IMG/VR virus record: IMGVR_UViG_646564533_000015 | Coordinates: 1 to 57,176 of that record | DNA from: a virus | Lineage: Duplodnaviria; Heunggongvirae; Uroviricota; Caudoviricetes | Strand: one strand, 5' to 3' | DNA: 57,176 nucleotides | Part shown: positions 34,540 to 40,500 of the stretch, in pieces | Numbering within the stretch: the first letter of the stretch is position 1 | How the letters are laid out: every line of letters begins with the position of its first letter | Made by a program: the position numbers

Positions 34540-37500
34540 GATAATATATTGACAGGCATCATTGCTGTCTGTGAAAAATAAGTCTCTACAAACATATAAG
34601 GCCTTTTAGCCAGCGTCTTCTTTCAGGTCAGTCGCTGGCTTTTTTTATTATGCTGCCGGTGCATTTATCTCCAGCACCAGACTTTCTATCTCAACGCCAT
34701 ACGCTGCATTTTTTGTAATATCCGTCAGCGTCAGCGCATTCAGTCCCAGTGTCAGACTGTCTTTTATAACCTGGAATGCCTGGCCAGCCACTCCATTCAG
34801 TTTCGGAGTAACCGTGGCACTGCCGGCGGTGAACACCAGCTCCAGCGTCTGCCAGTCGTTACCGTAATCGCCGAACTCCCCCAGCTTCGTGTTTCCGGCT
34901 TTCCTGTGATGCATCAGATTCACTCTGCCGTCAGTGGTCTGAGTGAAGTACGACATCAGGAACGGATTACCGGTACCCGTCATCGCCACACCATCAGGAA
35001 CGGGAGCATCCGTATACAGATAAATCCCCAGCCCGAACTGATTGTTGGTCAGTGCGCCTGACAGGCGGAACTTACAGGTCAGTCTGCCGCCCTGTGTCAG
35101 CAGGGTAATTGCGTCATCCACCGGATGCGTCAGGGACCAGGTTTTATTGCTCTGCTTGGTGATCTTAAATACACCATCTGACAACTGAATTCCGCCATCC
35201 TTAATGCTCCAGCCCTGCGCAGCAGCCTCTCCGGCTGCCGGCAGCAGGGAGATTGTGCGAACGGACGTATCTGCAGACGGACCCGATGGCGTGTTGCCGC
35301 CGGGCGAGGGTTTGATTTCCGGTGCCTTACCACTGATGAAGGCTGAGGTGCGCCCGGCTGCGTTCAGAATAGCGGTTGCCAGACGATCCGGAATAATGCT
35401 CCTGCGCGCCCATGAACTGAAATGTGTCGGGCGGTTTGATGATACCTGGTTTCCATTCGTTCTCGATGCCGCACCGTAATATCCTGATGCCGGAATATCC
35501 GGATCTTCTGCCGGCGCGTTAGTGGCGGTATTGACGCCGTTACCGTCTGTCATGAAGGGCACAAAATAAACGCCCTCACTCTCCCTGTTTTTGTACGCCC
35601 CGTAAATGGTGTTGTACTGCGTGCCGTAGGTGTTTTTCCAGTAATACGTCGTGTCACCACAAATCCACGGCACATTTACAGCACTGCCACCATGACACTG
35701 CGCGTTAAACACAGTGAGGTCAGCACGAAACTGCTTCAGCATGGCTGTAAACAGCGCAGGTTGCTGTGCGTAGGTGGCGGCGCTCATGTCAAACTCTCCC
35801 TGCATCCAGCACACCGCCAGCAACACATTTTTCGGGTTCTTCTGTAATGCAGCTTTAGTGCGCGCAATCAGGTCCTGATATAACGGTTTACCCACACCCC
35901 AGCGCGCCGAATCCTGGCTGGCCCCCGCGTCCGCACTGAATGTCCCCTCCGCGCCCTGGGTGAATGCCGAACCACCACGACAGCATGGTACCAGCAGGAT
36001 CCCCGCGTTATTCGGGATATACGGAAGCAGTTTTTTGGCAATATGTAAGCCCTGGCCGACACAGCCGTACTGCCCTTTGCTCAGGTCTGCCTTCGGATGA
36101 TTCAGCGTACTCATATCCTGCACATCATGCAGGCAGTGGTCGGCCGGAATAATATCGTTATATCTGCAGGCAGCCCCACCCGGCGTAACTGTACTGCGGC
36201 GCGCCAGCTGTTTAATGCGCGGATCCGGAGCATCGTATGAATCCGGCAGCGGAAGCCCTTCACCGTAAGCCATGGCATTGGACTGCCCGGCCAGTACGAT
36301 GACGTAGTACCAATCCGGCTCAGTTGCACCACTGACCACCACATCACCTTCTGCTGTAATCGCCTGCATCAGGGTATAAGGGGTTATGGCCACCGGACTA
36401 CCAAACGGCTGCCAGCCCTCTTTCAGTTTGTGTGTCAGCTTTTCCGCAAGGTCTGACGGCGACGCCGCCCTGACAACATCATAATGTTTAAATGTCATTA
36501 TTCCTCCCGGCCGGGATAGTGTATTAAATCAGATATGGAGTGGGCTGTAGTCCGGAAGCCTGAATGACACACGGGGACTACAGCCCAAGAAATGAAAAAA
36601 GGCCACGCAGTTGCGCAGCCTGATAAACCCTGGTTAAAATCCACACGATAACAACACAACAATATCAGTATCTCATGCTATTGCCCGAACCCATTCGGGC
36701 ATTTTTTACCCATAAAAAATGCCCCTCCGGAGAGGGGCATGTTTGCATGCACATTCTTTTTCTTGCATGGTGCCGGGTGCCTCCCGGTGAATTCAGTATC
36801 AGCACCTGAATCCGCGATTATCCCATATACCTGGTTGCTGATCGCCCCTCCGCACAGGGGGATTCACCATGCAGAAGTGTTTTTAATAAACAGCAAACAA
36901 AAAAATCAAGCATTATGCAGGCTGTTTCTTTTTATCACCGGCCACAGCAATACCACAATGCCGCAGACCAGCACCCCATCCGCCAGCACCGACATGATTC
37001 TGCTGGTGAAATCCACCATCACCACCAGAAACAGCAGGAGTGCAGCCACAGCCAGGCGCAGTTTTACCGTCACAGGTGATTCTCCAGACGAAGACCCAGA
37101 ACACCGGCAATCTCTTCCAGCACCTTGCGCTCTTCCGGCTCAATTTCGCCGTCTGCCTCCGCAATGGCCACCGCCACATCCAGCACATCTTCCGCTTCAC
37201 GCGTATCGTGTTTCACATCCTCAATCTCGCGTAACGCGGCACGACGACCAATTTTAAAATTGGTATCCAGCTGACCGATAATGGTTGCGCTAATCGCATT
37301 AATTTCCGAGGTAAACGCAGACAACGCAGGCTGATTACGTAAGACCTGTTCGATCTTCGCTTTCTCGGATGCCTCGCATTCACCATCTGCATAGGCCACC
37401 AGGTATGCAGCGTTAATCACCGCCTGTGCCAGATCGCGTTTCTCAAACTTTTTAATTTCCGCTGCCGCTCTGCGGGTTTTCTTTTTGAAGATTCCAAACA

Positions 37501-40500
37501 TCGTGACGTTCCTTTGGGTGGGTGAGCCAACGCCCGGGAGCGATCTGCCCACAGAGAAAGTCACACTGACCACTCCGTAAGCTCACCCCCGAAAGGCTCT
37601 GTGGTTGATATGCGCCGGGCGTGGCGCAGATACAAAAAAGGCCCGCCGAAGCGAGCCTGGAAAATAAGTGTGGCGCGTTGTAGTGGAGTCTAACCACTGA
37701 CCGATTGCTTAGAAGGCAATTGCTCTGTCCGACTGAGCTAACAACGCATGATGCTGATAATGGACCGCCATCGGGGACTTGAACCCCGCGCAGCCAGCTT
37801 CGAAGGCTGGCGCTCTGTCCCGATGAGCTAATAGCGGTATGTAATATGGTGGCCCTTGCTGGATTTGAACCAGCGACCTGGCGATTATGAGTCGCTCGCT
37901 CTCACCACTGAGCTAAAGGGCCGGGCGCAGGATAATAACGGTACGTAACTAATCCTGCAATATCATCCGTTCTGACTGACTAAATCCTGAACTTCCCTGA
38001 CCGTCTGCTCAAAACGTTCAGTCTCCAGCTCAACGCCAATTGCACGACGCCCCAGCGACATTGCTGCTTTGACGCTACGGACATAAAAAAGCCAGCCACT
38101 GGGGGAGGCTGGCAAACTCGTAGAGCAAAATGCTGTTACGCAAACTTCGTTACAGGGTCATCCTGCAATACAAAAAATACACAATATTTAGAAAACTAAT
38201 AGTGCCATGTGCAATTTTTAAGATTTTGTTATTAATTGTGGTCGCACCTTCCTTTCTGTGTACTTTCCGTATAGCTCACAGGATTCTGGGTACAAAAAAA
38301 CCCGCGCATCGGCGGGTTAAGCAGCGTGGCAATGTAACCACTCTTATCATGATATGCAGATTTTTACGATCGTAAACTATTTTTTCGCTGATAAAATACA
38401 GAGGTTCTCCCTCCCGGCAATTCACGCTCAACATACCGATCCATCTCAAGCCTCACTCCCAGCATCATCAGCATGCCTTCAACAATCCCCTCAGCTTTGT
38501 GAAGGCGTTTACCTATACAGGTGTCAGAGCACCCATGTTTCCGTGCCAGCGCCATGAACGTCTCCCCCAACACGTAATAATCAACCAGCAAGTCATGCAG
38601 ATCGCTGTTGTTCCTGTTAAGGCGAGCCATACACCCGCATATAATCATCGCGTCATCGTCACAACACTGTGGACGTGATTTTACTTTTTCGGGGATCAGT
38701 CCCTTAAATCCGGCAGCAATGGGCGACCATGTAACATCCTCATAGTTATTTGCCGCCCATGCACCCCAGCGCTCAAGAACCTGCCGGATATCACGCATCA
38801 GTATCTTTACCCCATCCGCGATGAACCATAAGAACACCGTTGACAATAGCGTGTCTTTTTCCTTCTTTATCGCCAGTGTATTTTCTGACCGTGTTGCGAC
38901 TACAGTTCAGTATTCTGGCTACCTCGGTCTGATTTTCATATGCCTCAACGAGCATGTCAGGAATGGTTTTTACTGTGAACGTCATGCGGCCTCACTTCTG
39001 CTGTTTCGCAGGTCTTTAAGTTTCTGCTGATACTTCGCCTTGATGGCCCTGCACTCTTCGACAGTCCAGCGATGGCGGTTATGGTTTGATTCGATTTCGT
39101 CTACTGCTTCCTGCCCGATGCGATTAATCAGTTCGACGCGATACGGAACGAGATTTCCGCTTTTGTGCTGGTTGCACACCACGCATTGCTTGTGAATATT
39201 GCGTTCATCAAATCGGAGTTGAGGTGCCGCAGCAGTTGTCCGGTAATGTCCGGCATCCCACTGAGCAGACGTGAGCGTTCCGCACGAGATACATGGTAAG
39301 TCGCGGTCTCTTTCTCTGATGAAGGCGTTTACGGCTTGTTGGGCTTGTTTAATCCAGTAACTGCGGGGCTTTAAGGCGAGTTTTCGAATCTTAATTTTAT
39401 CTTTCTGTTTCTGCTCCTCTCGTCGTCGTTTCTTCTCTGCTGTTTTTTCCGCCTTTTCGCGTTCTTTATTTCGTCGTTCGAGCGCTAATTTAGTTCCGTG
39501 TTCCGGGCTGCACCACCACTGATTTGAGAATGCCGGGTGAAACCATTCCTTACAGATTTTGCATTTCCTTCGCGCTGGTTTAGCCATTAAGCAGCCTCCC
39601 CTGTTACTTTAAGCATTCCGTTATCTAGCAGCTTTCTTGTCAGCCACTGTTGACCACGCCCGGTGATTTTTGTGGTGAACGATATCTGTATTCCGTGATT
39701 TGTATTGACCGCTGTTTCTTTCACTGTGAAATAGCCGCGATCCATATATTCCTGCATTGGCACATTGCGCCGGGCACCTGAAGCAATAAGGATTTTGTGA
39801 TCGCGCATCCACGCAAACAGTTTGTTTGGACCAATACCAACAACCTTTGCAAAGTTTCCAATCAAAATTCCGCTGGCCTCGCCAACTCGATCGGCAAACT
39901 CAACTTTAGGTGCTGCGAGAGCAAGCTGTTTCTCCAGTTCAGCCTTCTGGTCTTCAAGGTCGGCCGCAAGGCGCAATGCCTCAGAAAAGGTTTGTGGTAT
40001 TTTCGCGGTTGCCCCTTCGAGTTCTCGCCAGCGGTCAACAAGGCGAGCGGTGAATTCCGGCGACAACTGAGCGACGACAATAATGCTGTCTCGCTTACCT
40101 TGTTCGCCTTCGAATACATACACACGAAAACTTTGATTTAAGCCTAACCCATTGATTCTTCCACAATCCTCAATTTGAGGATGTCGGATAACACCATTTT
40201 TAGCCAGCATTTCGATAGTACGTTTCACATTGTCATGACGCTTACCTGTAAGCTCAGAGATTTCAATGCTGGTCATTTTGATGACGTTGCTATTTATCAG
40301 CTCGTTCATTGTCATGTCCTCTCATATTGAAAATTCACCAATAAAAAACCCAGCCGAAGCTGGGTTTGTTAAGTTGTCAATTGTCAGTAGCGATGTAGTG
40401 AAGGAGGTAATTCTTTGTTCTTAAGCCTTACCCATGCGGAAAGATTCGTTGGTCCGTCTGGCTCATTAATATCAACATCTCGTGTGTGATTGATTAAAAC

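Follow-up and report, generated by a model that had tools for sequence, protein, structure and literature searches.

The sequence 3' of the lambdoid late promoter P_R' tolerates insertions of 'moron' coding sequences (CDSs), which are followed by convergent small RNA (sRNA) genes; prophages with such insertions include Sp5, which carries the Shiga toxin (Stx) genes stx2, and Sp3, 4, 9, 10, 11, 15 and 17, and the sRNA AgvB has been placed in Sp10 and Sp17 (Tree et al. 2014, PMC4104026). We analysed a prophage of 57,176 nucleotides (IMG/VR record IMGVR_UViG_646564533_000015, positions 1 to 57,176; the whole stretch is hereafter the window) in which this position is held by terB, also named tciA, and tciB, which encode a TerB-family protein and a small DUF3927 membrane protein. 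The cassette is an extra CDS insertion between Q/P_R' and the lysis genes that is missing from related phages and has convergent sRNA genes on its 3' side. A lambdoid moron at the P_R' insertion site was reportedly described by Juhala in 2000, and a classical moron has its own promoter as well as a terminator; the window cassette has terminators on both sides but no predicted promoter of its own, and in this respect departs from the classical definition.

The cassette is an already known, annotated and very common tciA/tciB moron at a described insertion site. Our preferred reading of its role, to which we give a probability of roughly 45%, is that terminator, leader, terB and tciB form a tciA/tciB-type moron in the lambdoid cargo slot, with an accessory, membrane-protective function in the lytic phase and not that of a toxin.

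The terB-tciB cassette in the stx slot

Alignment of the window with the Stx2 phage 933W showed homology at 37623-39000 (95.8%, ungapped) and at 36391-36890; between these blocks, 732 bp (36891-37622) stand in place of the 1,369 bp that carry stx2AB in 933W. The Stx1 phage BP-4795 has the same downstream boundary, at 36886, and in the non-Stx phage PPwrbA_EH2201 the slot is empty, with about 80 bp between the two flanks. An earlier note on this DNA had placed the pair where stx sits in Stx phages, and with the boundaries set against these three phages it is literally true that the cassette occupies the exact stx slot. Neither stx1AB nor stx2AB was matched anywhere in the window by BLASTN or TBLASTN, in keeping with the note's statement that no stxAB lies between the tRNA genes and nanS-p.

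The gene order is Q, a DNA-methylase remnant, three tRNA genes, the cassette, the nanS-p esterase, an insertion sequence (IS), a P21-type holin and the lysis genes (Table 1), so that open reading frames (ORFs), ARAGORN and Pfam together uphold the Q - tRNA - nanS-p - lysis layout described earlier. The three tRNA genes (37671-37922) map onto the ileZ/argN/argO coordinates of 933W, and RefSeq labels the nanS-p type gene 'SASA family carbohydrate esterase'. Related phages have a DNA methylase gene between Q and the tRNAs; here, as in 933W, only its C-terminal remnant survives (37963-38076), and in the Escherichia coli O103 strain ML775 the RefSeq annotation treats it as a pseudogene.

The 143-amino-acid (aa) terB product is identical to RefSeq WP_000466957.1, 'tellurite resistance TerB family protein'. 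It matches Pfam PF05099 (E=2.9e-16, 60.2 bits against a cut-off of 24.4, residues 26-138), PHROG 632 'tellurite resistance' (1.7e-69) and, by phmmer, the solved Klebsiella TerB 2jxu (E=4.4e-8, residues 14-137). Two repeated acidic D-G-x5-E motifs are a hallmark of the TerB family; the corresponding D39 G40...E46 and D117 G118...E124 motifs are invariant or nearly so in 21 homologues, as is, without exception, a basic N-terminal motif (G3, K7). The AlphaFold (AF2) model is all-helical, with a confident pLDDT of 87.8, and its sole credible Foldseek matches were to 2h5n (probability 1.00, TM-score 0.55-0.62, weak E-values of at least 0.013), which we take to be classed as TerB-like; the nuclear magnetic resonance structure of TerB, 2jxu, was not ranked in this search of the PDB. 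The fold evidence is thus supportive, not decisive, and is in line with the Pfam, PHROG and 2jxu sequence matches, which together confirm that the protein is TerB-like, as had been proposed. NCBIfam gave only sub-threshold fragments of DjlA, YmfL and anti-sigma-E for the cassette proteins.

The tciB product is identical to RefSeq WP_000216636.1, 'DUF3927 family protein', and matches Pfam DUF3927 (PF13064; E=4.3e-17, 62.3 bits against a cut-off of 25) and PHROG 1470 'TciB-like' (4e-30). Its hydropathy profile has hydrophobic spans at about residues 7-21 and 29-46, a polar DFTSR turn between them and basic residues at both ends, so that the topology is likely a hairpin with both termini inside. 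A DFTS...DG core is kept in the TciB copies of P1, P7, Pollock, 434, Klebsiella, Salmonella, Serratia and Pantoea. The GTG start of tciB shares bases with the TGA stop of terB (a GTGA overlap, CTGTGACG), and the two proteins are very probably co-produced by translational coupling through this overlap. The ratio of nonsynonymous to synonymous substitution rates was 0.014-0.044 for terB and 0.17-0.31 for tciB; because purifying selection acts on both ORFs, we regard the small ORF as a real gene. The earlier description of a two-transmembrane ORF starting on the terB stop therefore holds in everything but its length, which is 55 aa and not about 56.

DUF3927 proteins are always single-domain proteins of 50-90 aa, save for rare TerB-DUF3927 read-through fusions. 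Two such 'fusions', of 197 aa and 170 aa, are frameshift read-throughs at the overlap, and a 162-aa chimera that includes a primase zinc ribbon is the scar of a recombination; all three were set aside as uninformative on domain architecture. The window holds a single terB/tciB copy. No terC- or terD-family genes adjoin it, the neighbours being Q, the tRNAs, the sRNAs and the SASA esterase, and no TciC-like ORF follows tciB, the next 194 nt being STnc100 RNA.

This STnc100-family gene begins 5 nt past the tciB stop and ends at a terminator (36719-36740), and the AgvB gene beyond it is convergent. What had been called a strong terminator region does contain terminators, but it consists of these two convergent sRNA genes with the terminators that belong to them. 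An STnc100 plus AsxR/AgvB block also lies 3' of stx2B in 933W (where the sRNA is AsxR), of stx1B in BP-4795 and of the cassette of PPyecE_EH1910, and the empty-slot phage PPwrbA_EH2201 has STnc100 alone at the downstream side of the slot. As judged from these alignments, the STnc100/AgvB block is conserved backbone and not cassette, and the variable slot is the interval between the argO-proximal terminator and STnc100. In a prophage of Pantoea sp. PGP6 (L023, 3519-4584) the order is Q, tRNA, STnc100, leader, terB, tciB, holin, with STnc100 upstream of the cassette and not downstream as in the window. The upstream terminator of the window (37628-37669) weakly resembles the 3' end of STnc100 (E=0.02). 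These arrangements hint at cassette exchange by recombination in or beside STnc100.

A cassette core covered to at least 80% is found in 789 of 5,426 complete E. coli genomes (~15%), and the 1.2-kb region with its flanks reaches the same coverage in 327. In all, 1,144 genomes have some match to the core, and these contain a median of 4 and a maximum of 10 matching places each. The pair is annotated by RefSeq and named in phage records (tciA/tciB in JLK-2012, 'TciA/TerB-like' in PPyecE_EH1910, TciB in the Q-to-esterase slot of phage 434), the P7 record already mentions TerB homologues in cryptic prophages of EDL933, and in a 2026 preprint TerB (PF05099) figures among the genes that are conserved next to the prophage sRNAs PasA/PasC. 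With these records and the described insertion site (PMC4104026), the view that TerB is 'not a classical component' of the locus has to be given up. The note would have been refuted by a common, conserved backbone segment with a known function, and this holds by half: the segment is indeed widespread and conserved, yet it is exchangeable and not backbone, and its function is only inferred.

The combination of a 933W-type Q/P_R' with this cargo is uncommon (10/5,426 genomes), the best match being ML775 at 99.9%, in which this Q arrangement is found elsewhere on the chromosome. The 1.2-kb segment of UTME-1 and NE 1092-2 is 100% identical but stands behind a different Q gene, and was discounted as a counterpart. 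From these comparisons the cassette region is a mosaic. A 'DUF3927-only' variant of O104:H4 was dismissed as a pseudogene remnant beside IS elements.

Late control and the conserved leader

The window shares its late control elements with 933W: P_R', qut, t_R' and the tRNA promoter pT are 100% identical, and a consensus scan independently recovers P_R' and the terminators. For the Q gene, the start annotated by RefSeq in the near-identical ML775 genome corresponds to 38798. The 933W 'terminator upstream of the stx genes' maps to 37634-37657, with two loop bases changed in the window. Between this terminator and terB (37658 to 37501) a consensus scan found no sigma-70-like promoter on the minus strand. 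P_R' is constitutive and is terminated immediately downstream in lysogens (PMC7547250). With no promoter of its own and terminators on both sides, the cassette would be transcribed mainly when Q antiterminates the P_R' transcript. Because the control elements match those of 933W and P_R' is terminated in lysogens, expression by Q-mediated read-through in lytic growth, together with the esterase and lysis genes, is predicted with high confidence, and the earlier expectation of Q-dependent expression appears sound.

The short terminated P_R' transcript of Stx2 phages is the regulatory sRNA StxS (PMC7547250). The interval from P_R' to t_R' (38294-38376) is 100% identical to that of 933W, and the stx-negative prophage of the window probably makes StxS too.

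This arrangement bears on lysogenic conversion, in which low expression in the lysogen would give tolerance of tellurite, oxidative stress or colicins, or superinfection exclusion. The homology-based names of the genes do say 'tellurite or colicin resistance', and leaky expression from the many copies in genomes of enterohaemorrhagic E. coli (EHEC) could add up. Set against this are the upstream terminator, the lack of a promoter in the consensus scan and the occurrence of the pair in lytic operons under repressor control and in phages that are strictly virulent. In the PMBT3 study, too, tellurite resistance from a lone terB in the absence of other ter genes was argued to be unlikely (PMC8421299). 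We consider lysogenic conversion improbable.

A conserved leader of 137 nt separates terB from the upstream terminator. It folds more stably than shuffled controls (z=-4.0), and its identity is 79% to Salmonella and 77% to Pantoea, whose terB third codon positions reach only 56% and 49%. In alignments with the cassettes of Salmonella and Pantoea, nucleotide homology begins at the terminator/leader, and in those with the P2-like copies it begins inside terB. A leader motif scan of one genome per species returned 39 matches, mostly chance matches as expected, and 10 genuine ones (in Franconibacter, Pantoea, Pseudescherichia, Citrobacter and others). In all 10, TerB and TciB come about 100 nt further on, and in two of them TerB is only 43-45% identical to that of the window.

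RNAalifold, applied to 11 leaders, predicted two hairpins, a small one of GCGCC/GGCGC and a long one that pairs an invariant CCUUU with the AAAGG of the Shine-Dalgarno sequence. Three base pairs have compensatory changes and most pairs are invariant; in controls on the consensus, 98.4% of cells were paired, and the covariation score was 0.120 against 0.099 for shuffles, being reached by 3 of 500. The minimum free energy fold of the window leader adopts another register than the alignment consensus and leaves the Shine-Dalgarno about half accessible, so we put forward sequestration of the Shine-Dalgarno by the leader hairpin as a hypothesis only. An RNA thermometer was rejected, the predicted Shine-Dalgarno accessibility barely shifting from 25 to 45 C. 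No Rfam family matched the leader even at a permissive threshold, apart from a terminator-like partial match to STnc100 (E=0.02). The evidence overall is moderate; the leader is probably a regulatory RNA element of the cassette and, as far as could be found, has not previously been reported.

A more ambitious proposal is that the cassette is self-contained, with a new family of cis-acting leader RNAs (~135 nt) gating translation of a TerB/TciB inner-membrane complex, which would itself be a previously unrecognised lytic-phase device for exclusion or counter-defence common to lambdoid, P1, P2-like, N4-like and jumbo phages. The CCUUU/Shine-Dalgarno hairpin might then be opened by RNase III, an sRNA or a ligand. 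Taken as a whole, this proposal is unlikely.

Distribution and candidate functions

The pair occurs in diverse phages. In lambdoids of E. coli and Pantoea it lies between Q and the holin gene; in P1 and P7 it is part of the C1-repressed ban operon, with a third gene of 35 aa, tciC, and flanking tRNA genes; in P2/186-like prophages of Klebsiella and Serratia it is inside the early operon; and in a Salmonella prophage it is upstream of the terminase genes. The virulent N4-like phages Pollock, FSL SP-058/076 and TR2 have it in their early region, and Erwinia jumbo phages also carry it. Stop and start overlap (ATGA type), or are separated by at most 3 nt, in P1, P7, Pollock, Asesino and the loci L018-L023, and in all other phages examined the pair is a two-gene unit without terC- or terD-family neighbours. 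Its residence mostly in lytic operons of P1/P7, P2/186-like, N4-like and jumbo phages argues for a lytic-phase function at the inner membrane and not for a toxin.

In four unrelated phage types terB-tciB stands beside tRNA genes: P1 (L009, 1131-2791), P7 (L011, 552-2282), Asesino (L012, 612-1830) and JLK-2012 (L001, 4203-5197). The tRNA sets differ among the four and the blocks are without nucleotide similarity; a common tRNA-tci block of P1/P7 and lambdoids was rejected when BLASTN of the JLK-2012 tRNA region against P1/P7 found no similarity. In Pollock, a group I intron match (L010, 3555-3907; Rfam RF00028, 101 bits) lies about 450 nt downstream of tciB.

The earlier note had suggested toxin-like cargo. 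On such a reading TciB would be a membrane toxin with TerB as its regulator or antitoxin, or the pair would, in the manner of stx, be harmful to the host or to a eukaryotic target. TciB is small and hydrophobic, lies at the stx position and would be strongly expressed on induction. Neither protein, however, matches a toxin family in Pfam or NCBIfam or, significantly, a PADLOC model, and TerB lacks a signal peptide and any logic of secretion. Most copies of the pair are in lytic operons, including those of virulent phages and of phages of non-pathogens. The genes are also non-essential and tolerated in P1, and are stably maintained in up to 10 places per genome. We regard this suggestion as very improbable.

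In the preferred reading, a moron with a membrane-protective role, the soluble TerB-fold protein would dock on the two-span inner-membrane protein TciB, and in lytic growth the complex would guard the envelope of the producing cell or its energised inner membrane; candidate threats are DNA entry by superinfecting phages and pore-forming colicins. Protection of the envelope is proposed because ter operons show phage-inhibition and colicin-resistance phenotypes, an analogy; Iyer et al. 2021 (PMC7824862) have also suggested that Ter components of phages act in superinfection. That docking and protection both take place in this way is a tentative suggestion that we would not yet call likely. The tciA/B/C genes of P1 are non-essential by CRISPR interference (PMC10695390), which makes the function an accessory one; the pair may contribute to fitness while being dispensable for plaque formation.

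Several points weigh against the membrane-protective reading. Vibrio and Pseudomonas phages have TerB alone, and in the Q-to-esterase slot of phage 434 (L008, 2612-3844) DUF3927/TciB is accompanied by a 247-aa multi-span protein without a Pfam match and by a 62-aa ORF; judging from these loci, TerB and TciB can work apart, and their physical interaction is putative. The ter genes reportedly needed for the ter-operon phenotypes (terC, terD and others) are not adjacent to the cassette, and the P1 tci names were assigned 'by homology' only. The PADLOC defence models gave no significant match for the pair (a 14.5-bit partial match to PDC-S48 for TerB, none for TciB), and in the literature on TciA/TciB, DUF3927 and phage TerB in exclusion or induction we found no experiment, several apparent 'TerB' matches there concerning terbium, replication termini or the ter island. 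There may also be low-level expression in the lysogen through terminator read-through.

Two other functions were considered. If TerB/TciB buffered the proton-motive force or ion balance and so prevented early triggering of the pinholin, no outside target would be needed. The lambdoid pair lies just upstream of the holin/endolysin genes and is co-transcribed with them, and TciB is a small two-span inner-membrane protein; but the pairs of P1/P7, P2-like and N4-like phages lie in early operons far from lysis genes, and a Pfam search found no likeness of TciB to holin or antiholin families. A role in lysis timing is thus distinctly less plausible, and we think it unlikely. The other is counter-defence, in which the TerB fold would bind a small ligand or metal and the complex would neutralise a host abortive-infection or membrane-depolarising defence. 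TerB has been described as a ligand-binding domain of Ter systems (PMC7824862), the invariant acidic D-G...E motifs are compatible with ligand or metal binding, and virulent and jumbo phages carry the pair besides temperate ones; against this, there is no similarity to known anti-defence proteins and the ligand is putative. We judge counter-defence, too, to be improbable.

Among the cargoes of the Shiga toxin slot in EHEC prophages, the pair ranks with the commonest, and its control in the window is by the late promoter and antiterminator that also drive high Stx2 production. Five unrelated phage types carry it, which suggests that it serves some general need of enterobacterial phages in lytic growth. 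If it guards the producing cell from phages or colicins, it would bear on competition and recombination among lambdoid prophages within an EHEC cell and on Stx-phage ecology. The conserved leader is a candidate new regulatory RNA.

Elsewhere in the window, the tmRNA gene ssrA (698-1060) lies at the prophage end and is followed by type III effector genes; this effector set (two NleG, one IpgB/EspM) beside ssrA presumably corresponds to that of Sp17, and the prophage would then be Sp17-like. An IS3-family element (~32950-34640) stands between the nanS-p esterase and the holin gene, where ML775 has 153 bp. It may be polar on the lysis and structural genes, and the prophage may be defective. A second 348-aa ORF (12332-13378) was ruled out as another copy of the IS transposase. 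The C4/isrK elements (41142-41342) lie upstream of an ORF6N/P22AR-C antirepressor gene (40384-41088), an immI-like control module in a lambdoid prophage.

Table 1. Features of the window in and around the terB-tciB cassette and in the rest of the prophage.
Feature	Position	Strand	Remarks
terB (tciA)	37070-37501	minus	143 aa; ATG start; Shine-Dalgarno AAAGGAA; cytoplasmic TerB-fold protein
tciB	36906-37073	minus	55 aa; DUF3927; two-span membrane protein; GTG start overlapping terB stop
terB 5' leader	37502-37638	minus	137 nt; structured, conserved; part of mobile cassette
Leader copies elsewhere	L020 3866-4000; Pantoea sp. PGP6 L023 3863-4000; L029, L045, L047, L053-L056		
Intrinsic terminator hairpin directly 5' of cassette	37639-37658	minus	Terminator scan; same element precedes stx2A in 933W
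STnc100-family sRNA	36708-36901	minus	Rfam RF02076, 142.7 bits (gathering score 47)
AgvB anti-GcvB sRNA	36646-36707	plus	Rfam RF02702, 96.5 bits (against 56); own terminator 36682-36701
tRNA Arg(UCU)	37671-37747	minus	ARAGORN, Rfam
tRNA Arg(UCG)	37761-37837	minus	ARAGORN, Rfam
ileZ-type tRNA (CAU)	37847-37922	minus	ARAGORN, Rfam
tRNA promoter pT	37932-37960		100% identical to 933W feature
Second terminator	38085-38113		100% identical to 933W feature
t_R' terminator	38294-38316	minus	100% identical to 933W feature
qut	38328-38335	minus	100% identical to 933W feature
P_R' late promoter	38349-38376	minus	100% identical to 933W feature
Q antiterminator, 933W type	38364-38837	minus	Pfam Phage_antitermQ E=1.3e-51; 96.8% nucleotide identity to 933W Q
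nanS-p type sialate O-acetylesterase	34648-36498	minus	Pfam DUF1737 + SASA + DUF6645; next late gene
IS3-family orfA	33318-33665		
IS3-family orfB	33485-34531		
isrC match in IS3-family element	33350-33472		Rfam
C4 antisense RNA, P1/P7-type	41142-41226		Rfam
isrK	41252-41329		Rfam
C4 a1/b1 target	41289-41342		Rfam
IpgB/EspM-family effector gene	2079-2669	minus	
NleG gene	2851-3411	plus	
NleG gene	4214-4792	minus	
Integrase	53056-54240		Far end, ~52 kb from ssrA

Comparison with described systems

The closest relatives of the pair by protein sequence and organisation are in P1 and P7. TciA of P1 is a TerB-family protein 42% identical to the window TerB over its full length (E=8e-24), the P7 TerB reaches 51%, and TciB of P1 is a DUF3927 protein (Pfam 7e-31) with 58% identity over the core. 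The P1/P7 module (terB-upf69.4-upf69.6 in P7) also shares the overlapping stop and start, the tRNA neighbours and the location in a lytic operon. It differs in its third gene, the single-span tciC, which the window lacks, and in having neither the conserved leader nor nucleotide similarity beyond coding DNA; in P1 the pair is controlled by C1 in the ban operon and does not lie behind Q.

The TerB of the terZABCDEF operons (Klebsiella 2JXU; the ter islands of R478 and EHEC) belongs to the same Pfam family and has a comparable length and a helical fold, and the full-length match to 2jxu links the two. In contrast, the window has no terC, terD, terE, terZ, terA or terF nearby, and the partner of its TerB is a 55-aa DUF3927 protein and not the multi-span TerC. 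Tellurite, phage-inhibition and colicin phenotypes belong to the ter operons and may be carried over to the pair only as an analogy.

DjlA is a co-chaperone of E. coli whose TerB domain is anchored at the inner membrane through a transmembrane segment. Such a membrane-held TerB would be reproduced by the pair, as by the rare 197-aa fusion, and the profile of the TerB-like part of DjlA is weakly similar (NCBIfam E=1e-6, well short of the cut-off). The window TerB has no J domain and its anchor would be a separate polypeptide, and it is not a member of the DjlA family. T4 Imm and HK97 gp15 are small inner-membrane exclusion proteins, dispensable for growth, that could block the entry of competing DNA; TciB may be likened to them by analogy only, as they act alone and have no TerB partner; no relationship in sequence or family was found, though no search aimed at one was made.

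In position and control, the nearest counterparts are the stx morons. Both stx2AB (933W/Sp5) and stx1AB (BP-4795) occupy the same slot, with tRNAs and a terminator upstream and STnc100 plus AsxR/AgvB downstream, and the P_R'/qut/t_R' control of stx2AB in 933W is identical to that of the window. Like the cassette, the stx morons are two-gene operons with tightly spaced cistrons. Their proteins are unrelated, the cassette encoding a cytoplasmic and an inner-membrane protein where stx encodes a secreted AB5 toxin, and it is the terB-tciB cargo that carries a conserved leader of its own.

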